A stretch of DNA of 64,000 bases, from assembly GCA_965232515.1 (NCBI GenBank), contig CBDDPY010000002.1, positions 3,712,001-3,776,000 on the forward strand. Reading direction: 5' to 3'. Every line of letters begins with the position of its first letter. The first letter of the stretch is position 1. The notes under the pieces are model-generated. The model was given only the letters and a program-made list of their open reading frames with translations. It searched no databases and was not told the origin of the DNA. The position numbers and the translations under genes were made by a program. The stretch comes from Alphaproteobacteria bacterium. Lineage in GTDB: Bacteria > Pseudomonadota > Alphaproteobacteria > GCA-2731375. Shown here in pieces: positions 30,257-42,561 of this stretch.

Positions 30257-31738
30257 ATGCTGGAACAGCTGCTTACCGGTTTCGACGCGGCGCTCACCCT
30301 CGGCAATCTCGCCTTCATTGCCGCGGGCGTCGCGCTTGGTATCGTCATCGGCGTGATCCCCGGGCTCGGCAGCGTCACCGCGCTGGCGGTGCTGATCCCC
30401 ATCACCTTCTACATGCAGCCGCTGGCGGCCATCGCCTTCCTGGTCGGTGTCAACAAGGGGGGCACGTCGGGCGGCGCCGTGCCGGCGATCCTGCTGAACG
30501 CGCCCGGCACGCCGGAGGCGGCGGCGACCGCGCTCGACGGCCATCCGCTCGCCCGCAAGGGCCAGGCCGAAAAGGCCATGAAGTTCGCGCTGTTTTCGTC
30601 GGTCACCGGCGACACGTTTTCGGACATCGTACTGATCCTGGTCGCCGCGCCCTTCGCGGTCATTGCGCTCCAGTTCGGTCCGCTGGAATTCACCGCCGTC
30701 CTGCTGTTCGCGTTCGCCCTGCTGTCGGGCCTCGCCGGCTCGTCGCCGCTCAAGGGCCTGACGGCGATCTTCCTCGGCGTGTTCCTCAGCACCATCGGCC
30801 TCGATCCCATCGACAGCACGGCGCGCATGACCTTCGGTCAGGTCCAGCTGTTCGACGGCCTGCCGCTCGCCGCGATCGCCATCGGCGCGCTGGCGCTGGC
30901 GTCGGTGATCGAACAGCTCTTCGGGCTCTGGCGCGAGGGCGAGACATCAACGGATCGGGCCGCCGCACGGGGCGACAGGGCCGCGAACCGGCTGCCGTTC
31001 CGCACCTTCTTCGGCTACCGCAAGACGCTGCTGCGGTCGGCCTTCATCGGCTCTGTCGTCGGCATGCTGCCCGGCCTCGGCGTCTCGCTGGCCGCCTTCC
31101 TGAGCTATGGCGCGGCGCGGCGTGCGTCGGCCGACGCCGACAGCTTCGGCCGCGGCAATCCGGAAGGCATCGTCGCCACCGAGGCCGCTAACAGCGCCGT
31201 CGTCGGCGCCAACCTGGTGCCGACCATCGCGCTCGGCATTCCGGGCAACATCGCCGCGGCGCTGCTGATCGGCGCCTTTATGATCCACGGCGTGGTGCCG
31301 GGACCGTTCATGATGACCATGCACGGCGAGCTGATCTATGCGCTGTTCGCGTCAATGCTGATCGCCAATGTCGTGCATCTCGCGATCGGCACGGTCGGCA
31401 TCCGGCTTTGGGCGCATGTCGCCCGCGTGCCGCGCGGCGTGATCCTGCCGATGGTCATCGTGCTCTGCATCGCCGGGGTCTACCTGCCGACTCAGTCCAT
31501 GTTCGATATCGGCGTCATGCTGGCCTTCGCCGGCGTCGGCCTGGTCATGCGCCGCACGGGATTCTCCGTCGTCTGTCTGGTGATTGGCTTCCTGCTGGGC
31601 GGCATGTTCGAAACCTCCCTGCGGCAGGCACTTCTGTTGTACAAGTCCGACATGACCGCCGTTCTGCAAAGCCCGATCGCGCTGATCTTCCTGGCGCTGA
31701 CGGTCTTCATCCTCGTGCGTGCATTTCGCCGCGGCTGA
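30257..31738 (+). CDS. tctA: Tripartite tricarboxylate transporter large permease
   Basis: GVIPGLG, ILLNAPGTP, TALDGHP, EAANSA and LGIPG. Confidence 0.9.
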   Translation: MLEQLLTGFDAALTLGNLAFIAAGVALGIVIGVIPGLGSVTALAVLIPITFYMQPLAAIAFLVGVNKGGTSGGAVPAILLNAPGTPEAAATALDGHPLARKGQAEKAMKFALFSSVTGDTFSDIVLILVAAPFAVIALQFGPLEFTAVLLFAFALLSGLAGSSPLKGLTAIFLGVFLSTIGLDPIDSTARMTFGQVQLFDGLPLAAIAIGALALASVIEQLFGLWREGETSTDRAAARGDRAANRLPFRTFFGYRKTLLRSAFIGSVVGMLPGLGVSLAAFLSYGAARRASADADSFGRGNPEGIVATEAANSAVVGANLVPTIALGIPGNIAAALLIGAFMIHGVVPGPFMMTMHGELIYALFASMLIANVVHLAIGTVGIRLWAHVARVPRGVILPMVIVLCIAGVYLPTQSMFDIGVMLAFAGVGLVMRRTGFSVVCLVIGFLLGGMFETSLRQALLLYKSDMTAVLQSPIALIFLALTVFILVRAFRRG

Positions 31739-31743
31739 CCGCG

Positions 31744-32556
31744 ATGGGACGCAGCGCCAGCAGCCGCAAGGCCATCGCCCCCGACGATCTGGAGACCTTT
31801 CTGCATGGCCAGATGCGGGACGCCATGGCGCAGCCGAAGCGCACCAAGCGCACGGCCGTACGGCTGGCGCTGACCGCGGCGATCCGCGAGGCCGTGCTGG
31901 GGCCGGGTGATCGGCTGCCGCCGGAAACCGAGCTCGCCGACATGCTCGGCGTCAGCCTGGGCACGGTGCAGGCTGCCTTGCGCCAGCTGCAGCAGGTCGG
32001 CGTCATCACCCGCCGCCGCGGCGACGGCAGCAAGGTCGCGTCCGCCGTGGCCGAAGACTCGCCGATCTGGCACTTTCGCTTCGCGCGCCGGCACGACGGC
32101 GCGTCCGTCCGGCTGATCGATCATACCGTGCTGCGGATCGACACAACGACCGAGCAGGGCGTTTGGACCCGCTTTCTCGGACCCCGCTCCAGCTATATCC
32201 GGATCAAGCGTCGCTTTGCCGAACCGGACTGCCAGCCGATCGGGGCCGAGATGTTTCTCGACCCCGCGCTGGCGCCGGGCCTGTCGCAACTGACGGCGAG
32301 CGATCTGGAGATGATCAATATTCGCGCGCACCTCTTCGAGCAGTTCGGCATCGAGACGATCGGCGCCGAGCATCGCGTGCAGACGGCGACCGCGGACGCC
32401 GCGACGGCGAGGACCTTCGGCATTGCGCCCGGCGAAGCGGTCTTCGAGATCCACGCCGAGGCGTTCTCGCACGACCACAGGCCGACATACTTTCAGCGCA
32501 TCTATGTGCCGACGGCCGACTACGTGCTGCTGTTTCGCAACCTGATCGCGCGCTAA
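31744..32556 (+). CDS. GntR-family regulator with a UTRA-like C-terminal domain
   Basis: GDRLPPETELADMLGVSLGTVQAAL and RRRGDGS. Confidence 0.85.
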   Translation: MGRSASSRKAIAPDDLETFLHGQMRDAMAQPKRTKRTAVRLALTAAIREAVLGPGDRLPPETELADMLGVSLGTVQAALRQLQQVGVITRRRGDGSKVASAVAEDSPIWHFRFARRHDGASVRLIDHTVLRIDTTTEQGVWTRFLGPRSSYIRIKRRFAEPDCQPIGAEMFLDPALAPGLSQLTASDLEMINIRAHLFEQFGIETIGAEHRVQTATADAATARTFGIAPGEAVFEIHAEAFSHDHRPTYFQRIYVPTADYVLLFRNLIAR

Positions 32557-32569
32557 CGGCAGAACGCCG

Positions 32570-32797
32570 TCATCCGACGAAGAGGATGATGAAAGCGATG
32601 ATCAAGGCAAACAGCGCGATCGCCTCGGTCAGCGCGAAGCCGAGCAGGCCGACGGGCTGCACGACCTCGCCGGCGCCAGGGTTGCGGGCGATAGACGAAA
32701 TCCAGTCGGCGAAGATCTTGCCGAGCGCGAGGGCGACGCCGAGCAGTGGAAGCACGGCGAACGAAGCCGCCAGCAGTCGGATGCCATCATCGGTCAT
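32570..32797 (-). CDS. atpE: F0F1 ATP synthase subunit c paralog (stand-alone)
   Basis: 75 aa, two hydrophobic helices, ARNP loop and essential carboxylate in GFALTEAIALF. AAGGAG ribosome-binding site. Confidence 0.92.
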   Translation of the reverse strand: MTDDGIRLLAASFAVLPLLGVALALGKIFADWISSIARNPGAGEVVQPVGLLGFALTEAIALFALIIAFIILFVG

Positions 32798-32851
32798 ATC
32801 TTGGTCTCCTTTTCATTGACGTAAGCGATGGAGCCGGGGGGCTGGCTTTGG

Positions 32852-33616
32852 CTAATGCGCATGCAGCGCGTCCCGGATGTAGAGCGATGTGATCAGGATG
32901 AAGATGTAGGCCTGGACCAGGAAGATCAGGCACTCGAAGCCGTAGAGCACGATCATCATGATGACCGGCAGGATCGAGACGCCCAATCCGGTCACGCCGA
33001 GCGCTTCCGTCAACATGACGCAGAAGTCCGCGAACAGCTTGATCATGATGTGGCCGGCAAGAATGTTGGCGAAGATCCGAACGCCGAGCGTGATCGGCCG
33101 GAACAGGTACGAGATCACCTCGATAACGACGAGCACGGGCGCGAGATAGAGCGGCGTGCCGGCCGGCAGGAAAAAGCGGAAGAAGCCCGCCCCTTGCGTG
33201 CGTACGGCGAGGATGTTGACGTAGGCGAAGACGGTCAGCGACAGGGCGAGCGTCACCACCAGGTGGCTCGTGAACGTAAACTTGATCGGCGTCAGGCCGA
33301 TCAGGCTGCCGAACAGGATGAAGACGAACAGCGAGAACACGAACGGAATCGCCGAACGGGCTTCCTGCCCGGCGGTCTTGACCACCGTGTTGGCGACGAA
33401 GGAATAGACCGCCTCGACACTTGCCTGCATGCGGCCGGGCACCAGCGCCCGCTCCCGGATACCGTACATCAGGTAGGCGCTGACCAGGATGACCGTGGTG
33501 ATCATCGCCTGCGCCGATGTCGTGAATGACACGTTCGCGCCGAACAGCTCGAGCGGCACCAGCACGTCGATCTCAAACTGCCTTATGGCGTAAGGGGCTT
33601 CCGGTTCGTAAGCCAC
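32852..33616 (-). CDS. atpB: F0F1 ATP synthase subunit a paralog (stand-alone)
   Basis: LVPGRMQ, FTFTSH, IEVISYLFRPITLGVRIFANILAGH (essential Arg) and E..IFLVQAYIF. GTG at 33616 is 8 nt from AGGAGAGG; TTG at 33622 is an alternative start. Confidence 0.92.
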   Translation of the reverse strand: MAYEPEAPYAIRQFEIDVLVPLELFGANVSFTTSAQAMITTVILVSAYLMYGIRERALVPGRMQASVEAVYSFVANTVVKTAGQEARSAIPFVFSLFVFILFGSLIGLTPIKFTFTSHLVVTLALSLTVFAYVNILAVRTQGAGFFRFFLPAGTPLYLAPVLVVIEVISYLFRPITLGVRIFANILAGHIMIKLFADFCVMLTEALGVTGLGVSILPVIMMIVLYGFECLIFLVQAYIFILITSLYIRDALHAH

Positions 33617-33683
33617 AAACAAAACCTCTCCTGCGCGGCGGGCGTCATGCCCGCCGGCCGACGCGCAGGAGATGTTGGCTTAC
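33608..33683 (-). promoter_or_regulatory. Extended leader hairpin covering the atpB Shine-Dalgarno and start codon
   Basis: Nested inverted repeats 33608-33615/33676-33683 (8 bp), 33627-33637/33662-33672 (11 bp) and 33638-33643/33649-33654 (6 bp). Confidence 0.6.
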
Positions 33684-33685
33684 CG

Positions 33686-33723
33686 ATAGAATTAAAACGG
33701 CTGAGTTGATCGGCTTTTCCGAT
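33686..33723. promoter_or_regulatory. Candidate LysR/OxyR-type binding site upstream of atpB
   Basis: ATCG-N7-CGAT at 33709-33723 plus an ATAG half-site at 33686. Confidence 0.5.
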
Positions 33724-33748
33724 CATGGCGCGGCGGGCCCGCCGCCGG

Positions 33749-34669
33749 TCACTGCATGACCGTGACTTCCGGCACCCCGCTCCTCAAGATCCCGCGAACC
33801 AGCGCGGCCAAGGCGGAGAACTCTTCCGTGCGTGCGGAGTGACGCCGCCAGATCATGCCGATCGAGCGGAACGGCGCCCGCGTGCGCAGCGGCAAGGCGA
33901 CGACCTGTTCATCGTTCAACACCTCGGAGCGGACGTAGAGCGCGGGCAGGAATGACAGTCCCATGCCCATGCCCACCATCTGCCGGAGGGTGTCCAGGCT
34001 GGTGCCCTCATAGTCGAGCGAGAGCCTGGCGCCGAACTGATTACAGAGATCGCGGACCTGATCGTGCAAGCGATGACCCTGTTCCAGCGACAGCACGGTC
34101 TCGCCTTCCAGGTCGGAGCGGTCGACATGCTTACGCTTGGCCAGGCGGTGATCGCGGGGCACCACCACCCACAGCGGCTCGCGGAACAGCGGCACGCTTT
34201 CGAGGTCGGCGCCCTTCACCGGCGCCGGAAACAGCAGCAGATCGAGATTCCCCTCGTCGAGGCCGGTGAGCAGCATGCGCGGCATGGCCTCGCGCACGTA
34301 GAGCCTGAGGTTGGGATAGGTTTGCCGCAGTTCCGGCAGGATATGCGGCAGCAGATACGGCCCCAACGAATGCAGGATACCAAGCCGTATCGTCCCGCCC
34401 AGCAAGGTCTGATCGTGCTTGGCCAGCGCCACAATGTCCTGCACGTCCCGCAGGATGACCCGCGCGCGCGTCGCGATCTCACCGCCGATGGGGGTCAGGA
34501 TAACCCGCGCCCGGCTGCGCTCGACCAGCTGCACGCCGAGCTTCTTCTCGAGCTCGCTGAGCTGCCCGCTCAGAGTCGGCTGGGTGACGTGGCTGATCTC
34601 CGCGGCGCGGCGGAAATGCAATGTGTCGGCAATGGCAACCAGATAACGCAGTTGCTGCAACGTCGGCAT
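33749..34669 (-). CDS. LysR-family regulator, OxyR-like but lacking the peroxidatic Cys
   Basis: MPTLQQLRYLVAIADTLHFRRAAE..VTQPTLS, LGPYLLP, LEQGHRLHDQV and TSLDTLRQMV. Confidence 0.9.
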   Translation of the reverse strand: MPTLQQLRYLVAIADTLHFRRAAEISHVTQPTLSGQLSELEKKLGVQLVERSRARVILTPIGGEIATRARVILRDVQDIVALAKHDQTLLGGTIRLGILHSLGPYLLPHILPELRQTYPNLRLYVREAMPRMLLTGLDEGNLDLLLFPAPVKGADLESVPLFREPLWVVVPRDHRLAKRKHVDRSDLEGETVLSLEQGHRLHDQVRDLCNQFGARLSLDYEGTSLDTLRQMVGMGMGLSFLPALYVRSEVLNDEQVVALPLRTRAPFRSIGMIWRRHSARTEEFSALAALVRGILRSGVPEVTVMQ

Positions 34670-34851
34670 GTTCAGACCCCACTCCTTGTCAAAACGCTTT
34701 CGAAAGGCGAAGCCTATCGAAACTTGTCTTAACTTCGATTGGTTCGATGAGATTTTCAAGCGCATATCTGCGGAGCATTGGCCAGGACGCCGATGCGGTC
34801 CGGCTCGGCTGGGCCGGATTACCCTCTGGCGACGCGGAGCAGACGGACGGT

Positions 34852-35820
34852 ATGAAGCGTTTCAAGAACATTCTCATGGTCTGCGACGACCAGGGCCTGC
34901 ACGACGCGATGATCGGCCGCGCCATCTGGCTGGCCAAGGCCAACGACGCCCGGATCACACTGGTCGATATCGTCGACGCTGCGCCCGGCGACCTGACGCG
35001 AAAGTTCGCCGCCCTGCCGGGCTCAAGGTCATATGATTTCGAATACGAGGTGCTGGAGCTGCACCGCGCGCGGTTGAGCGAGATCGGCGGCGCCTTTCGA
35101 GCGGAAAAGATCGATACGACGGAGCTGGTGCTGCAAGGCACGCCGTTCATCGAGATCATCAAGCAGGTCCTGCGCGCGGAGCACGACCTTGTTTTCAAAG
35201 GCGTGGATCAGCCGTCCGACACGAACAGCTTTTTCTTCTCCAGCACCCACTTGCATCTGCTGCGCAAGTGCCCCTGCCCGGTCTGGGTCATCAAGAAGAG
35301 CCGTCGCCGTCAATACGCCCGGGTGCTGGCCGCCGTCGATCCGGATCCGGCGGACCCCGGCCGCAACGCGCTCAACCGGCTGATCATGGACCTGTCGACC
35401 TCGCTCTCGGCGCTGGACGGCAGCGAACTGCATGTGCTGAACGCCTGGGGCTTCGGCGAAGAGACGACGCTGCGTCACAGCGCATTCCTCAAGATTCCCG
35501 AGGAGGATCTCGACATCCTCATCGAGGAGGAGCGGAAGCGAAGCGCCGAGAGGTTGGATCAGCTGTTGCTGAACTATCCTGGCGACAAATCCGGGTCTGG
35601 CCCGGACCGCCAGATTCACCTGATCAAGGGCAACGCGCCGGAGGTGATACCTGAATTCGCGCGGAAGCGGCGGGTGGAGCTGATCGTCATGGGCACGGTC
35701 GCCCGCACCGGCATCAGCGGGCTGTTCATCGGCAACACGGCGGAGTCCATCCTCAGCCAGATCGAATGCTCGATCCTCGCCGTCAAGCCGCCGGGCTTCG
35801 AAACACCGGTGAAGTTGTAG
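34852..35820 (+). CDS. Universal stress protein with tandem USP domains (UspE-like)
   Basis: FKNILMV, LLRKCPCPVWV and LIVMGTVARTGISGLFIGNTAE. Confidence 0.9.
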   Translation: MKRFKNILMVCDDQGLHDAMIGRAIWLAKANDARITLVDIVDAAPGDLTRKFAALPGSRSYDFEYEVLELHRARLSEIGGAFRAEKIDTTELVLQGTPFIEIIKQVLRAEHDLVFKGVDQPSDTNSFFFSSTHLHLLRKCPCPVWVIKKSRRRQYARVLAAVDPDPADPGRNALNRLIMDLSTSLSALDGSELHVLNAWGFGEETTLRHSAFLKIPEEDLDILIEEERKRSAERLDQLLLNYPGDKSGSGPDRQIHLIKGNAPEVIPEFARKRRVELIVMGTVARTGISGLFIGNTAESILSQIECSILAVKPPGFETPVKL

Positions 35821-35847
35821 GCGCGCGTTCGCGACGCGCTGCGGGGT

Positions 35848-36033
35848 TCACTCGGCGCGTTGCAGCACGCGCTCGCGACGCCAGAAGACCTGCGCCACAT
35901 AGGCTTCGGCCGAGTCGTGTCCGAACCGCGCCAGGCAATCATGGTAAACGGCTTCGGCCCGACCAACGGCACACATTTCCATGTCCGACTTGCCCTGCGC
36001 GTCGCGCACCCGTCCCAACTTGGTTTCCGACAT
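35848..36033 (-). CDS. Hypothetical small protein (61 aa)
   Basis: GGAGGG 7 nt upstream of the ATG; fills the gap after the usp gene; no family recognised. Confidence 0.5.
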   Translation of the reverse strand: MSETKLGRVRDAQGKSDMEMCAVGRAEAVYHDCLARFGHDSAEAYVAQVFWRRERVLQRAE

Positions 36034-36144
36034 CGGCCGTCCCTCCAGCTATCAGTGCGGCCTTGCAGCCGCGACGCCTTCCCCTTAGCAATCAATTTGG
36101 CGGCACCGGCCGGCCGCGGCCAATCGATCCGCAGGCGTAAGTTC

Positions 36145-36251
36145 ATCGAATCCCGCAATCAACCGCCGCGCCCATCAAATCGATTGACCATGACGATCCC
36201 ATATCAACTTTTTGATAGAAACAAACAATCAATACTTTGAAGAAAATCGAC
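36145..36251. promoter_or_regulatory. Cluster of candidate LysR boxes between the two divergent small genes
   Basis: ATCG-N7-CAAT (36145), ATTG-N7-CGAT (36183) and ATAG-N7-CAAT-N7-TTGA-N7-CGAC (36215-36251) in an AT-rich tract. Confidence 0.5.
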
Positions 36252-36343
36252 TAGGACAATCGGCCGCGAGCAGCCACATCCAAGCCAGTCAGCCAATCGG
36301 AATTCGGCAGACGTATCGGGACCGAGCAGGAGGAAATGGGCCA

Positions 36344-36562
36344 ATGGACATCGAAAACCGCTACGACGCGCTGATCGAGCGGCACTGCAGACTGGAAACC
36401 AAAATCGCTGCCGAACAAAAAAGGCCCCTGCCCGACGCGCTCCTGTTGCAACGGTTGAAGCGCGAGAAGCTGCTGCTGAAAGACGAGATCGAGTCGTGGG
36501 AACGGTTGTTGGCGGCGATTAAGGTCCGGCCGGTCTTCCGGGCCGGCGCGCCGCACGCCTGA
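36344..36562 (+). CDS. YdcH/DUF465-family small coiled-coil protein
   Basis: L.ERH..LE.KI..E.KRP.PD...LQRLKREKLLLKDEI pattern. AGGAGG ribosome-binding site. Confidence 0.85.
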   Translation: MDIENRYDALIERHCRLETKIAAEQKRPLPDALLLQRLKREKLLLKDEIESWERLLAAIKVRPVFRAGAPHA

Positions 36563-36664
36563 TCCGTAGGAGACGGTGTTCAGGGGGCGGTACGGAATTC
36601 AATTGCATCGGATGGTGGGAAAGGGGACTTGATCCGACGTCACTGATAAACATGTCTACGCATG

Positions 36665-36698
36665 GCGGCCCCAGCCTCGCGGTGGGGCCGTTTTTCTT
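36665..36698 (+). terminator. Rho-independent terminator between the DUF465 gene and mrpA
   Basis: CGGCCCCA-N9-TGGGGCCG followed by TTTTTCTT. Confidence 0.75.
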
Positions 36699-36822
36699 CG
36701 GCTGGTCCGCCTCTGCGATAGACCGCGTGTCCGGCCAGCGTTATCAGATCCGCCCGTCGATCGAATTCAGCCCGTGGTCGACGAACCACCAACAATCAAC
36801 CGAATAAGGAACCGGAAGCGGA

Positions 36823-39120
36823 ATGAACAGGTCGGCGTCGCGGGGGGATCAGCAAGCGGACGGCACTTACGGCGAGAGCGGCAAAAGCAGAGCCGGTTTC
36901 GGCTGGCTGCCGGCGTTGCTGCCTGCCGCGTTCGCAGTGCTTTTCGCAACCGCCCTGCCGACCATCGCCGATGGCGACCCTATTCGGCTCGCTTACAACT
37001 GGGTGCCAAGTCTCGGCATCAATTTCTCCCTGCTACTCGATGGCCTGAGCCTGGCCTTCGCGCTGCTGATCAGCGGCATCGGTTTCTTCGTCACGCTCTA
37101 TGCGCGAACCTATCTCGCCGGCCATCCGCATCTCGGCCGGTTCACGCTCTACCTGCTCGCGTTCATGGTCGCGATGCTCGGCCTGGTGCTGGCCGACAAC
37201 CTGATTACGCTGTTCGTGTTCTGGGAGCTCACCACCCTCACCTCCTACTTCCTGATCGGCTTCAATCATGCCTCGGCCGACTCCCGCCGGTCGGCGCTGC
37301 AGGCGCTGTTGCTGACCGGCGCAGGCGGGCTGGCATTGCTGGCCGGTCTCATCCTGTTGGGCAACGTCGCCGGCAGCTTCGAGCTCTCCGAGATCCTCGC
37401 CCAGGGCGACCTGATCCGCGGCCACGACCTCTACCTGCCGATCCTGATCCTGGTGCTGCTGGGCGCGTTCACCAAATCGGCGCAGGTGCCGTTCCATTTC
37501 TGGCTGCCCAACGCCATGGCCGCCCCGACACCGGTCAGCGCCTATCTGCACTCGGCAACCATGGTGAAGGCCGGCATTTACCTGCTCGCCCGCATGCACC
37601 CGGCGCTCAGCGGCACGGAGGTCTGGATCTGGTCGCTCACCATCTTCGGCGCGGTGACGGCGCTGGCAGCCTCCGTGATCGCGCTACGACAGACGGACCT
37701 GAAACTGGCGCTCGCTTATACGACCGTCATGGCGCTCGGCACGCTGACCATGTTTCTGGGCGCCGAGGCGACGGTGGCGATCGCCGCCGCGATGACCTTC
37801 CTGGTCGTGCATTCGCTCTACAAGGCGTCTCTGTTCCTGATCGTCGGCATCCTCGACCACCAGGCCGGCAGCCGGGACGCCGAACGCTTGCGTGGCCTCG
37901 CCCGCGCCATGCCGATCACCGCAGCCGCGGCCGCCGCGGCCGCGCTGTCCATGGCCGGCTTTCCGCCGTTCCTGGGCTTCATCGGCAAGGAGCTGAAATA
38001 CGAAGGGGCGCTGGCCATCGCATCGGAACCGGCATTCGTCGCCACGGCGGCGGTGCTGGCCAATGCCCTGATGGTGGCGGTCGCCGGCATCGTCGCGCTG
38101 CGGCCGTTCTACGGCAGGCGGATTACGGCGGCCAAGACACCGCACGAGGCGCCCGTCGCGCTGTGGATCGGTCCCGTCGTACTGGCGAGTCTCGGCCTGA
38201 TCTTCGGCCTCGCGCCCTCGCTGATCGCCGACAGCCTGATCCAGCCCGCCGTGACCGCGATCCTCGGCCGGCCGGAGACCGTCAAGCTGGCGCTCTGGCA
38301 CGGCATCAACCTGCCGCTCGCCCTCAGTCTGCTCACCTTCTCCATCGGCCTGACGGTCTATGTCGTCCACGAGCGTCTTCGCCGCCTGCTGATCCGCGTC
38401 GAGGCAGGACTGCCGGCCACGGCCGATCAGGTCTGGGACCGGTTGCTCGACGGCCTGAAGGCGGTGGCCGCGGTACAGACGCGCGTCCTGCAGGGCGGCC
38501 TGTTGCGGCGCTATATGTTCATCGTCTTCGCCAGCGTCGCCGTCGCCGTCGGCGTCACGCTCGCCGCGACCGAGGCGGTGCGCCTGCCGGCCGAATGGCC
38601 CGAGCTGCTGTTCAAGCACTGGGCCTCGGTCGCGCTGATCGCGTCTGGCGCCATCATGACGGCGCTCTCCAAGACACGGCTTGCCGCGATTTGCGCGCTG
38701 GGCGTCGTCGGTGTCGGTGTGGCCTTGCTGTTCGTGATGTTCGGCGCGCCGGACCTCGCCATCACCCAGTTGCTGGTCGAGACCCTTGTGGTGGTGCTGG
38801 TCGGCGTGGTGATGCTCAGATTGCCCGGCCTCGATCAAGGCGCCCGCCCGGGGCGCGGCGCCGATGCGCTGCTGTCGGTCGCCGTCGGCGCGGTGGTCGC
38901 GCTGACGCTGCTGGCGGTCGTCGCCAGCCCCATCGACCGCTCGATCACCGACTATTTCGAAACGGCGAGCGTCGCCGAGGCGTTCGGGCGGAACATCGTC
39001 AACGTTATCCTGGTTGACTTCCGCGCCCTCGACACGTTCGGCGAGGTGGCCGTCGTCGCGGTCGCCGCAATCGGCGCCTACGCCCTGATCCGCGGCACGC
39101 GGCGGCGGGAACAGCCATGA
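36823..39120 (+). CDS. mrpA: Mrp/Mnh monovalent cation/H+ antiporter subunit A
   Basis: [43 protein letters not shown] and [18 protein letters not shown]. Confidence 0.95.
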
Positions 39121-39536
39121 ACTCGCTGATCCTGAGCACGGCGACCCGGCTTCTGGTGGCGCTGATGCTGCTGTTTTCGGTCTATATGCTGCTGCGCGGC
39201 CACAACGATCCGGGCGGCGGTTTCATCGGCGGACTGCTCGCCGGCATCGGCTTCGCGCTTTACGCCATCGCGCACGGCACCGCCGCAGCGCGCCGCGCCC
39301 TGCGCTTCGAGCCGCAGGCCATCGCCATGGTCGGCCTCGGCATCGCCTTGCTGGCGGGACTGTGGGCCGCCGTATTCGGCGACCCGCTGTTCACCGGGCA
39401 GTGGTGGTTCGTCGGCGCCAGCGACGACGACAAGGGGCTGCCGATCAGCTCGGTCCTGGTGTTCGACATCGGCGTCTATCTGGTCGTCGTCGGCGCCGTG
39501 CTGACGCTAGTCCTGGGTCTGGAAGAGGAGGTCTGA
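39117..39536 (+). CDS. mrpB: Mrp antiporter subunit B
   Basis: [16 protein letters not shown] and FDIGVYLVV. Confidence 0.93.
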
Positions 39537-39538
39537 TC

Positions 39539-39910
39539 GTGGAGGCCGTGCTCGCGCTCCTGATCGGCGTCCTGGTGGCCGCCAGCGTCTACCTGATGTT
39601 GGCGCGCAACGTGATGCGCTTCCTGTTCGGCCTGGTGCTGCTCGGCAATGCGGCCAACCTGACCATCTTTGTGGCCGGACGCCTGACGCCGGAAGCCCCG
39701 CCCCTGGTGCCGGACGGCCTGACCGTGCCGCCCGAGCAGGTGGCGAACGCCCTGCCGCAGGCCCTGGTGCTGACCGCCATCGTGATCGGCTTCGGCCTGC
39801 TCGCCTTTACGCTGGTGCTGGTCTATCGCGGCTATCAGACGCTCGGCACGCTCGACAGCGACGCCATGCGCGTCGCCGAGCCGGTCGAAACCGACGGCGG
39901 CAAGCCATGA
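39539..39910 (+). CDS. mrpC: Mrp antiporter subunit C
   Basis: [18 protein letters not shown] start after GAGGAGG. Confidence 0.93.
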
Positions 39911-41409
39911 ACTGGCTGCTCGCCCTGCCGATCGTGCTGCCGTTCGTGACGGCGGTGCCGGCGTTTCTGTTGCGGGACAGGGGCGCTGCCGGACGCTGGA
40001 TCAGCCTCGGCGGCTGCGTTCTGCTGCTGCTCGCATCGGCGGCACTGATGGCCGCGGTCTGGCGCGAGGGCGTCATCGCCGCGCAGATGGGGGACTGGCC
40101 GGCGCCGTTCGGAATCACCCTGGTCGCCGATCTGTTGAGCGCCGTCATGGTGGTGATCACCGCGATCACCGGCCTCGCCGTCGCCGCCTATGCGCTCGCC
40201 GACATCGATTCGCGTCGGGAGTCGCTGGGCTATCATGCCCTATTCCAGATCCTGCTGGCCGGCGTCTGCGGCGCGTTCCTCACCGGCGACATCTTCAATC
40301 TCTATGTCTGGTTCGAGGTGATGCTGATCGCCTCGTTCGGCCTGCTGGTGCTGGGCGGCGACAAGGCGCAGCTCGACGGCGGCATCAAATACGTCACCCT
40401 GAACCTGGTCTCGACGGCGCTATTCCTCGCCGGCATCGGCCTGCTCTACGGCATGACCGGCACGCTGAACATGGCCGACCTGCACCTCGCCGTGCGCGAG
40501 GTCGAGAATACCGGCCTGCTGACTGTTGTGGCCGTCCTGTTCATCGTCGCCTTCGGCGTCAAGGCCGCAGTGTTTCCGCTGTTCTTCTGGCTGCCGGCTT
40601 CCTATCACACGCCACCGGTCGCGGTGTCGGCCGTCTTCGCCGGTCTGCTGACCAAGGTCGGCGTCTATGCGCTGATCCGCACCTTCACACTGATCTTCAC
40701 GCACGACACCGGCTATACGCACGGCCTGCTGCTGATCATTGCCGGTCTGACCATGGTCACCGGCGTGCTCGGCGCCGCGGCGCAGAACGAATTCCGCAAG
40801 ATCCTGTCGTTCCACATCGTCAGCCAGATCGGCTACATGGTGCTGGGCTTGGCGCTCTACACGCCGCTGGCGCTGGTCGGCGCGGTGTTCTATCTGGTCC
40901 ACCACATCATCGTGAAAGCGAACCTGTTCCTGGTGTCGGGCATCTCCAAACGGCTGACAGGATCGTTCGAGCTGTCGCAGATCGGCGGGCTCTACAAGTC
41001 GAGCCCCGTGCTCGCGATCCTGTTCCTGGTGCCGGCCTTCTCGCTGGCCGGCTTCCCGCCATTGTCCGGTTTCTGGGCCAAGTTCCTGCTGGTCAAGGCG
41101 AGCCTCGATATCGAGGCCTATCTGATCGCGGCGACGGCTTTGGTCGTCGGTATCCTGACCGTGTTCTCCATGACCAAGATCTGGGCCGAGGCGTTCTGGA
41201 AACCGCATCCCGCTGGCACCGCGCCGGTGCTTGCCGCCGTCGCCCCAGCCGAGCGCTACGCCCTGCTGGCGCCCGTCGTGGCGCTCGCCGGCCTCACCGT
41301 CGTGATCGGCCTCTACCCGGAACCGTTCGTGGGCTTCGCGGAGCGCTCGGCCGCTCAGTTGCTGGATCCCGCGCGCTACGTCGCGGCCGTGCTGGGCAGG
41401 ACGCCATGA
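39907..41409 (+). CDS. mrpD: Mrp antiporter subunit D
   Basis: [30 protein letters not shown] and LLTKVGVY. Confidence 0.95.
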
Positions 41410-41879
41410 ACATCTTCGTTCTGAACGCCTTTCTGGCCGTCAGCTGGGCGGCGCTGATCGGCAGCTTTTCGGCGACCAACCTGCTGCTCGGCTACGGCAT
41501 CGGCTATCTCGCGCTCTGGATCGCGCGCCCGTTGTTCGGCGAGAGCAGCTATTTCGAGCGAGTCTGGCGCGTCCTGCGTCTTGCCGCCCTCTTCATCTAT
41601 GAACTGATCGTCTCCAGCCTGCGCGTGGTCTGGGACGTGCTGACGCCGACGCATCTGAGCCGCCCCGGCATCATCGCTCTACCGCTGGACGTAACCCGCG
41701 ACGACGAGATCCTGCTGGTCGCCAACCTGATCTCGTTGACGCCGGGCTCGTTGAGCCTCGACCTGTCCGCCGACCGGAAAACGCTCTACGTGCACGCCAT
41801 GTTCGTCGACGACCCAGAAAAAATCCGGCGCGAGCTGAAGATGGGCATGGAGCGCCGGGTGCTGGAGGCGCTGGAATGA
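41406..41879 (+). CDS. mrpE: Mrp antiporter subunit E
   Basis: [11 protein letters not shown] and LYVHAM. Confidence 0.93.
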
Positions 41880-42199
41880 TGTTCGACAACGGCCGGATTC
41901 TCGACCTGGCGATCGAGGCATCGTTTGGGATGATCATGATCGCCCTGGTGCTTGCCTTCATCCGCCTCGCGCGCGGGCCGAGCCTGCCGGACCGGGTCGT
42001 GGCGCTGGACCTCATCACCATTCTGGCCGTCGCCTTCTGCGCGCTGTTCGCGATCTCGTCGGACCAGCAGGCCTTTCTCGATGTCGCCATCGCGCTGGCG
42101 CTGGTGGCGTTCCTGGCGACGGTCGCGCTCGCCCGGTTCGCCGAACGGCGCAAGGCGCGTTCCGAACGGCGGCCGGACGACGCGGAGGCCGGACCGTGA
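41876..42199 (+). CDS. mrpF: Mrp antiporter subunit F
   Basis: RGPSLPDRVVALD and FLATVALARF. Confidence 0.93.
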   Translation: MMFDNGRILDLAIEASFGMIMIALVLAFIRLARGPSLPDRVVALDLITILAVAFCALFAISSDQQAFLDVAIALALVAFLATVALARFAERRKARSERRPDDAEAGP

Positions 42200-42561
42200 G
42201 CGAGATCCTGACCGCCTTTTTCGTCGTCGCCGGCGGCTTCTTCGCGCTGGCCGCGGCGCTTGGCGTGCTGCGTCTGCCCGATGTGCTGATCCGCATGCAC
42301 GCGTCCACCAAGGCCGGCACGCTCGGCTGCGGCCTCACGCTGGTGGCCGTTGCCGTGCATTTCGGCGAGATCGGCATCACCGCGCGCGCCATCGCCGCCA
42401 TCGTCTTCCTGCTGCTGACGGCGCCCGTCGCCGCCCACATGATCGGCCGCGCCGCCTATCGCACCGGCGTGCCGCTGTGGCACGGTATGACCATCGACGA
42501 GGCCGCGAAACCGCCGGCCGAGAGCGCCGAACGGCGCGAGCAGAGCGCGCCGTCCGATTGA
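42196..42561 (+). CDS. mrpG: Mrp antiporter subunit G
   Basis: RLPDVLIRMHASTKAGTLG and LTAPVAAHMIGRAAY. Confidence 0.93.
   Translation: MSEILTAFFVVAGGFFALAAALGVLRLPDVLIRMHASTKAGTLGCGLTLVAVAVHFGEIGITARAIAAIVFLLLTAPVAAHMIGRAAYRTGVPLWHGMTIDEAAKPPAESAERREQSAPSD

Follow-up and report, generated by a model that had tools for sequence, protein, structure and literature searches.

Motors in which one core works with exchangeable ion-path subunits are known from several protein families, as in the flagellar stators MotAB and MotPS or PomAB and the subunit a isoforms of the V-ATPase, and we know of no such subunit swap described for the Fo sector of a bacterial F-type ATP synthase. A second set of subunits a and c beside an F-type enzyme, with apparent lateral spread, is found in N-ATPase operons (atpDCQRBEFAG), which carry their own F1, b, AtpQ and AtpR. 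According to one review (PMC7594442), the Gly/Ala repeat of helix 1 of subunit c sets the size of the rotor ring, and ring stoichiometry is genetically fixed per species and does not respond to growth conditions. A second (PMC4453477) gives a larger ring as favourable at lower proton-motive force and reports that the Bacillus pseudofirmus ring falls from c13 to c12 when Ala is changed to Gly. Here, we analyse a stretch of 64,000 nucleotides (the window) from an alphaproteobacterial genome (contig CBDDPY010000002.1, positions 3,712,001 to 3,776,000), in which a stand-alone pair of genes, atpB2 and atpE2, encodes paralogues of Fo subunits a and c (a2 and c2) next to an OxyR-like LysR-family regulator, a universal stress protein (USP) and an Mrp antiporter. 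In the best-supported reading, towards which we lean, the pair is a regulator-controlled alternative Fo set that would swap in by assembling with the housekeeping F1 and stalk. It would share the logic of the stator and isoform examples, one motor core with exchangeable ion-path subunits, in different protein families, and unlike an N-ATPase it brings a and c only.

The a2 gene (32852..33616, minus strand) encodes a 254-aa subunit a paralogue that scores 181.9 bits against Pfam PF00119 (ATP-synt_A; cut-off 33.9) and 280.5 against NF004482 (cut-off 225), and the c2 gene (32570..32797, minus strand) encodes a 75-aa subunit c paralogue that scores 38.8 bits against PF00137 (ATP-synt_C; cut-off 24). 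The longest open reading frame (ORF) of a2 spans 32852-33622(-) and opens at TTG 33622; judged by its orthologues, the start is probably the GTG at 33616. A first-pass annotation of the window, made from the sequence alone, had described the pair as a stand-alone atpB-atpE unit with intact Arg (in GVRIFAN) and Glu (in LTEAI), lying 13 nt from a convergent gntR gene and unaccompanied in the window by atpI, atpF/F', delta or F1 genes. This description holds throughout. The GntR/UTRA gene ends at 32556 on the plus strand, 13 nt from the convergent c2 stop at 32570; a tblastn search of the 64-kb window for atpI, b, b', delta, alpha, gamma, beta and epsilon, with this genome's versions as queries, finds no other ATP-synthase gene; and every match to PF00006 and PF00430 in the genome falls outside it.

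That annotation had also allowed that the window might hold the genome's only atpB and atpE. This possibility falls away because a complete atpI-B-E-F'-F operon is present elsewhere on the chromosome, at C2:3022623-3025116 (C2 coordinates refer to the chromosome of the window). A single copy of the atpHAGDC operon lies at C2:5116794-5121731, and the genome contains only two b-type genes, one b/b' pair, both inside the housekeeping Fo operon. The a2 and c2 genes are thus true paralogues beside a complete housekeeping operon, with 46% identity between a2 and the housekeeping a, a1 (110/240 residues), and 47% between c2 and the housekeeping c, c1 (32/68). The two sets are alike in their families (PF00119 and PF00137), essential Arg and Glu, RNP loop, similar lengths and a-then-c order, whereas a2-c2 differs in having no adjoining atpI, b or b', in its 46-47% identity and separate clade, in a G/AxAxAxG motif and in a LysR-type operator of its own. 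As a separate observation, the genome has an ATPase operon of V/A type at C2:5691798-5698417 (near 5.69 Mb), which encodes catalytic subunits of A/B type, a membrane protein resembling subunit I and a 4-helix proteolipid in which ATP-synt_C occurs twice; the organism thus holds an F-type enzyme, a V/A-type enzyme and a spare Fo a/c pair.

The stand-alone state of the pair is not peculiar to the window. We compared 50 a2 loci, namely the window, 19 from genomes and 30 from metagenomes; below, L-numbers denote these loci, with the exception of L086, and G-numbers denote genomes, G000 being that of the window and G001 one of the same genus. In all 45 loci with enough sequence, c2 follows a2, and in none of the 50 does tblastn find atpI, b or b' beside the pair. 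The five a2-bearing genomes tested all hold a better-scoring housekeeping a as well; gamma is single in four of them (none was found in the fifth, a 2.6-Mb metagenome-assembled genome), and b and b' above the cut-off occur only beside the housekeeping a. Since the pair has no dedicated F1 or stalk genes, and F1 and b/b' are single, these gene inventories leave two options: a2 and c2 rely on the F1 and stalk of the housekeeping enzyme, or they function without them. Complex prediction bears on this choice: a2 (alignment A1) together with residues 1-60 of b' and b scores 0.61, against 0.01 for the best of three controls, a mark that 58 of 80 solved complexes reach, as do 2 of 110 mismatched pairs, with runs agreeing in at least 97% of contacts and a partner pLDDT (predicted local distance difference test) of at least 76. 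The RNP loop of subunit c contacts gamma and epsilon, and its invariance in c2 appears to point the same way, towards use of the housekeeping F1.

Within the family, the pair is rare. Among 40 relatives, a second a gene is found only in the same-genus genome G001 (96% identity), and the 23 other genomes of the family have at most one a gene (22 with one, and the 71%-complete G012 with none). Further afield, many a2-like proteins with 59-96% identity appear in a collection of 5.8 billion proteins, under source labels that include Kiloniellales, Pelagibius litoralis, Hyphomicrobiales, Aestuariivirga and Rhodospirillales. With clustering at 50%, the a2 clade comes down to one full-length representative (59% identity), beyond which identity falls to 48%. 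The first-pass annotation had proposed phylogenies of subunits a and c as a test for a distinct paralogue clade, and for subunit a such a clade is recovered: in a tree of 43 sequences, the 19 from a2 separate from the 24 housekeeping ones (support of 100 in the Shimodaira-Hasegawa-like approximate likelihood ratio test, SH-aLRT; summed branch of about 1.5), and adding 33 library representatives (76-row tree) does not break up the a2 clade. By these sequence comparisons, a2/c2 is a distinct clade that spans several alphaproteobacterial orders. The 76-row tree shows no supported sister group of a2, and because its backbone is poorly supported, we claim no donor or origin. Against four orthologues, the ratio of nonsynonymous to synonymous rates (dN/dS) is 0.08-0.14 for a2 and 0.02-0.09 for c2; given these values, both are working genes under purifying selection.

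At the level of individual residues, a2 keeps GVRIFANILAGH and QAY, and with them the essential Arg of the penultimate helix and the conserved N, H and Q/Y positions; the Arg is invariant in 18/18 rows of alignment A1. Compared with the housekeeping a, it has eight extra residues inserted behind the Arg helix and carries the clade-specific K112, G178, D197 and Y225 (numbered from the GTG start). As an aside, K112 (window ~33281-33283, minus strand) is invariant in the a2 clade (TP-x-K-FTFTSH), and its place is taken by Ser, Gly or Thr in the housekeeping a. No Lys of the alkaliphile type turns up beside the Arg helix in the alignment.

The most consistent change lies in c2, for which motif counts are taken over 44 full-length sequences. 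The ALTEA carboxylate site, the RNP loop and Pro17 are each conserved in 44/44, as befits a subunit c hairpin with its ion-binding carboxylate and polar loop, and the carboxylate helix is the same as that of the H+-type housekeeping c (LTEAIALFAL, with Ala after the Glu), so that we do not adopt a reading with Na+ coupling. The helix-1 repeat, in contrast, is GxGxGxG in housekeeping c subunits and G/AxAxAxG in c2 (GVALALG in the window), with Ala22 in 44/44, Ala24 in 41/44 and Ala20 in 10/44 sequences, and c2 scores only 61.2 bits against the alphaproteobacterial c equivalog NF005733 (cut-off 85). Because the GxGxGxG repeat is replaced, we expect by analogy that the c2 ring probably differs in size from that of c1 and is most likely larger. 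The analogy is with the AxAxAxA c subunit of B. pseudofirmus OF4, where Ala likewise takes the place of Gly in helix 1, in association with a larger ring and with growth at low proton-motive force (PMC4453477). The two cases differ in that the Bacillus c is the product of an only c gene, whereas c2 is a paralogue under predicted regulation, and in that the Bacillus PxxExxP motif is absent from c2 (ALTEAIA).

Control of the pair is suggested by the adjacent regulator gene (33749..34669, minus strand; 306 aa), whose product has the HTH_1 and LysR substrate-binding domains of Pfam and lies near T-N11-A boxes, as expected of a LysR-type regulator. Its longest ORF is 33749-34765(-), with a probable start at 34669. 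The first-pass annotation had called it a non-redox OxyR-like LysR, and both parts of that label are supported. OxyR (NF008361) is its best NCBIfam match at 250.3 bits, below the cut-off of 329, and the Cys of the GHC motif is replaced by R, A or Q (GHR, GHA, GNQ) in 16/16 module-linked LysR sequences (the window, with Arg, and 15 other loci), all of which retain the second Cys. We take these residues to correspond to the peroxide-sensing C199 and the resolving C208 of Escherichia coli OxyR. GHC is present in two canonical OxyR-like comparators, namely the second LysR in L029 and the genome's own C2:3149276-3150157 (GHCL), which is 37% identical to the window LysR. About 13 kb from this GHCL gene, at C2:3162078-3163043, we also observe a second tandem USP, 36% identical to that of the window; the module's regulator and USP may have their ancestral or housekeeping counterparts in these two genes.

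A palindromic LysR/OxyR-type box, GATCGG-N5-CCGATCA (T-N11-A; 33707..33724, minus strand), is seen about 100 nt upstream of a2, and boxes with ATAG/CTAT-type half-sites occupy the same position in other loci. With a position weight matrix (PWM) built from six such a2-upstream boxes, a single site outside the training set reaches 14 bits or more in the window, namely a second box, GATAG-N7-CAATCA (36214..36231, plus strand; 19.2 bits), upstream of the DUF465 and mrp genes. Only 10 sites in the 7.39-Mb genome score at least 19.2 bits, and they include both boxes; most of the eight best other sites lie inside long ORFs in high-GC DNA, and we claim no regulon member outside the module. A degenerate box-like site picked out by eye, GAAAGG-N6-CCTATCG (34702..34719, plus strand), lies in the divergent lysR-usp intergenic region; it is below the 12-bit listing threshold, and similar sites stand at the same position in L036, L031, L027, L035 and L028. 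Across loci, non-training sites of at least 18 bits number 49 inside module spans (248 kb; 48 intergenic) and 2 outside (242 kb), an enrichment to which we attach no formal probability because the loci are related to each other and the counts overstate independence. The genes faced by the 49 sites are usp (14), a2 (8), lysR (6), the 61-aa small gene (4), mrpA (3), dps (3) and DUF465 (2), with none for 8. The operator shared by the regions upstream of a2, usp and DUF465-mrp predicts that a2-c2 is co-regulated with usp and DUF465-mrp, in keeping with the co-regulation with Mrp put forward in the first-pass annotation. The resemblance to an OxyR regulon extends beyond the best match to the ATAG-N7-CTAT/T-N11-A operator and, in one subclade, to dps directly downstream of the regulator; the module LysR nevertheless differs in its score (250 vs 329), in its replaced GHC Cys and in that the genome keeps a separate GHCL OxyR-like gene.

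We resolve two main neighbourhood architectures. In the first, under the labels Kiloniellales, Pelagibius and Minwuiaceae, the order is mrpA-G, (DUF465), (61-aa gene), usp, (lysR), a2, c2. The second, under Aestuariivirga, Rhodobiaceae and Hyphomicrobiaceae, reads DUF533, lysR, dps, a2, c2, with Dps scoring 119.8 against a cut-off of 114 and DUF533 scoring 201 bits. The DUF533 (TerB-like) membrane-associated protein stands directly upstream of lysR-dps-a2-c2 in L038 (7381-8085), L043, L044, L071 and L080, a set made up of loci with the labels Rhodobiaceae or Aestuariivirga and related metagenome loci. Where the sequence extends 2.5 kb or more upstream of a2 (28 loci), a LysR orthologue lies within 6 kb in 18, USP occurs in 18, Dps in 7 and at least one of the three in 25, while Mrp is found in 11 of the 18 loci with at least 6 kb upstream. 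The recurring linkage of atpB-atpE with LysR, usp and mrp that the first-pass annotation had envisaged is therefore real in other genomes, but its Mrp and USP parts are limited to one subclade. Because the other loci carry lysR-dps or unrelated genes, LysR rather than Mrp is, on gene order, the core partner, with Mrp and USP as apparent lineage-specific cargo. Next to the pairs of the most divergent loci (L041, L042 and L081) we find a PAS protein, a TerC protein and transposases. In L042, a Dongiaceae locus, the TerC-family protein lies ahead of a2. At L081 (6517-9580), the most divergent a2-c2 pair (53% identity) adjoins IS110-family and Mu-type transposase genes, which fits mobility.

The Mrp of the window is itself an addition to its genome, a point that the first-pass annotation had overlooked. 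Its seven genes, mrpA-G, stand in order, each with its own family domain in Pfam, as in group 1 Mrp antiporters. MnhE of one type occurs in all 33 family genomes, and in G000 it lies within L086 (C2:985235-992741), a divergent Mrp-like locus with the gene order E-F-G-x-B-C-D-D-D and an MnhE of the lower-scoring type. The window-type MnhE (143-144 bits) is confined to G000 and G001 among these 33. Because the family-wide type and the window type coexist in this way, the window mrpABCDEFG is by sequence a second, accessory Mrp with the same narrow distribution as a2/c2. The idea that it is the genome's only Mrp was ruled out by the second, divergent Mrp-like locus, which came to light in the family search.

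This narrow distribution, together with high a2/c2 identity between lineages and a dip in GC content, suggests that the whole module was acquired by lateral transfer. Compared with a Minwuiaceae genome, the window a2 shows 84% and c2 92% identity, and compared with Pelagibius litoralis 78% and 91%; for the housekeeping subunits of these genome pairs, the values are 64% for a and 65-73% for c (64%/73% for Minwuiaceae). GC content is ~0.63 across 32-38 kb, against 0.68-0.69 in flanking 2-kb windows. We therefore take the region to be an accessory stress module whose acquisition was probably lateral.

In the swap-in reading, some signal would activate the LysR protein that has lost its peroxide-sensing cysteine; it would bind the GAT(A/C)G-N7-C(N)ATCA boxes and turn on a2-c2, usp and DUF465-mrp together. 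The a2 and c2 subunits would then assemble with the cell's only F1 (atpHAGDC) and only b/b' stalk into a variant F1Fo with an exchanged proton path and rotor ring, and a larger c2 ring would raise the H+/ATP ratio, as would suit a low proton-motive force. The first-pass annotation had gone further and proposed an inducible swap-in cassette for high pH. The paralogues, the clade, the linkage and the shared operator speak for such a cassette, but since Mrp is not the core partner, an alkaline or saline trigger is one candidate among several, and the stress could equally be stationary-phase, oxidative or energy stress. More tentatively, and as a possibility that we would not bet on, the module could be a laterally mobile "gear-shift" cassette, by which one F1 and stalk are refitted in times of stress with an alternative a and a c-ring of different stoichiometry, in coordination with a second Mrp and under an OxyR-derived regulator.

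Several points weigh against the swap-in reading. As a-b complexes have already been solved, the predicted a2-b/b' pass may only mirror likeness to the textbook pair, that is, to a normal a subunit, and not binding by a2. The Gly/Ala motif gives no absolute ring size, and in a structure search the closest solved c subunits to c2 are mitochondrial, with no alkaliphile c-ring structure matching c2 at E up to 0.01; mitochondrial c subunits, which we take to form c8-c10 rings, likewise deviate from a pure Gly repeat. Stronger constraint, not transfer, could be the source of the high a2/c2 similarity between lineages. Box binding by the linked LysR is something we infer from adjacency and motif type, the box counts come from related loci as noted above, the linkage to Mrp and USP is confined to one subclade, and the most divergent members (L041, L042 and L081) have unrelated neighbours and no box. 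As for expression, a single study offers three RNA-seq libraries whose contigs, with 95-99% identity to the module, overlap parts of a2: the X1 library has depth in three 401-base bins (32604-33806) spanning a2, record 11 of X2 covers 32829-33080 and record 17 of X3 covers 33396-33615. RNA libraries may hold DNA, the depth of contigs cannot rank genes and gaps in cover (e.g., 31401-32202 and 39822-40222) are uninformative, so these contigs fall short of proof and give a weak hint of a2 transcription in a close relative.

The absence of dedicated F1 or stalk genes in the 50 loci would also be expected of an F1-independent proton conductance, in which a2 and c2, alone or with the housekeeping b/b', form a regulated passive proton-entry path, either acidifying the cytoplasm together with Mrp or, as a mild uncoupling, lowering reactive oxygen species under oxidative or stationary-phase stress. 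The neighbours of the pair fit this as well, with an antiporter that imports H+ in one subclade and Dps plus an OxyR-like regulator in a second. We nevertheless consider it unlikely, if the most serious of the alternatives: the RNP loop is invariant in 44/44 c2 sequences and, given its contact with gamma and epsilon, would not be needed by a free channel; a2 is predicted to keep the b/b' interface (0.61 vs 0.01, subject to the same textbook-pair caveat); and E. coli Fo needs a, b and c to conduct, and free Fo is harmful. The OxyR-like regulator, the OxyR-type operator and the Dps neighbour would equally suit stress-tolerant isoforms that replace damage-prone subunits at an unchanged H+/ATP ratio, like the isozyme swaps of OxyR and SoxRS. 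Met content is modestly lower in a2 (3.4% vs 4.7% in the housekeeping subunit) and c2 (1.3% vs 2.1%), and two clade-specific changes replace a conserved Met with Thr or Ile. This alternative strikes us as quite unlikely, however, as the Met difference is small, the regulator is without the peroxide-sensing Cys and the most consistent change, that in the ring-packing motif, would go unexplained.

The carboxylate helix segment LTEAIALFAL, identical in c1 and c2, makes a mixed rotor conceivable, with c2 doped into c1 rings and a2 merely the matched stator, so that the housekeeping Fo is tuned rather than replaced. A precedent may be PDB entry 4bem, which holds F1Fo ATPase C1 and C2 subunits and which we take to be the mixed ring of Acetobacterium woodii. 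Yet the helix-1 packing surfaces of c1 and c2 differ at most positions, which argues against co-packing, and the occurrence of a2 with c2 in 45/45 loci suggests a matched pair, so that we give this model only a small chance. That the pair lacks the other operon members might finally be taken as a sign that it is a duplicate of housekeeping Fo genes that is decaying or without function, or a fragment of an N-ATPase operon. Such an origin is highly improbable: it is contradicted by the conservation of the pair across several orders with intact key residues and by dN/dS values of 0.02-0.14, and scores against the N-ATPase models stay well short of the cut-offs (TIGR03306, 46.4 vs 302.1; TIGR03322, 25.1 vs 130.85), with no F1 or b genes in the window and no atpI, b or b' in the 50 loci.

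If the gear-shift reading is true, a bacterial ATP synthase would change its H+/ATP ratio conditionally, against the textbook view of a species-fixed c-ring stoichiometry. A second a/c pair that is conserved, regulated separately and altered in its ring-packing motif would offer a natural escape from the fixed-stoichiometry rule stated in PMC7594442, and would explain how some marine and soil alphaproteobacteria produce ATP when the proton-motive force drops. An OxyR-derived regulator would thereby command a compact regulon of a2-c2, USP, DUF465, a small protein and a second Mrp or Dps. In the open-access literature searched, we found no description of a stand-alone, regulator-linked atpB-atpE pair, and a search of PMC5709465 by passage gave nothing relevant. 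The full module is carried by a cultured organism, Pelagibius litoralis DSM 21314 (L035), in which conditional gearing is directly testable.

The remaining neighbours named in the first-pass annotation, a tandem usp, two small ORFs and mrpABCDEFG beside lysR, are all identified by Pfam or by orthologues, with one adjustment among the small ORFs. The usp gene (34852..35820, plus strand) encodes a 322-aa UspE-like tandem protein with two Usp stretches in Pfam, which the UspE model NF008380 scores at 164 bits against a cut-off of 227; its longest ORF is 34621-35820(+), and 34852 is the probable start. The small ORFs are DUF465 and a conserved 61-aa gene of no known family on the minus strand (35848..36033), which has GGAGGG upstream of its ATG and tblastn matches at the same position in L027, L028, L036, L056-58, L063 and L069. 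A 126-aa ORF on the plus strand (35860-36240) that overlaps the latter has no Pfam match, and no relative turned up in the 19 genome loci.

The Mrp genes are all on the plus strand: mrpA (36823..39120; 765 aa, with MbhD/MbhE C-terminal domains), mrpB (39117..39536; MnhB, 120.8 bits), mrpC (39512..39910; Oxidored_q2, 77.9 bits; start uncertain, the ORF opening at 39362), mrpD (39907..41409; Proton_antipo_M), mrpE (41406..41879; MNHE, 143.9 bits), mrpF (41876..42199; MrpF_PhaF) and mrpG (42196..42561; PhaG_MnhG_YufB). A scan of 32300-36900 for promoters and terminators gave 0 promoter-like and 3 terminator-like sites, not above shuffled sequences (mean 4.1). The DUF465 gene (36346..36562, plus strand) encodes a 72-aa protein matching PF04325 at 45.5 bits; its longest ORF is 36212-36562(+), the start is probably ATG 36346 and its orthologues sit between usp and mrpA in several loci. 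Between DUF465 and mrpA we observe a terminator-like hairpin followed by a T-run at 36674-36700(+), because of which DUF465 may form a separate short transcript or an attenuated leader.

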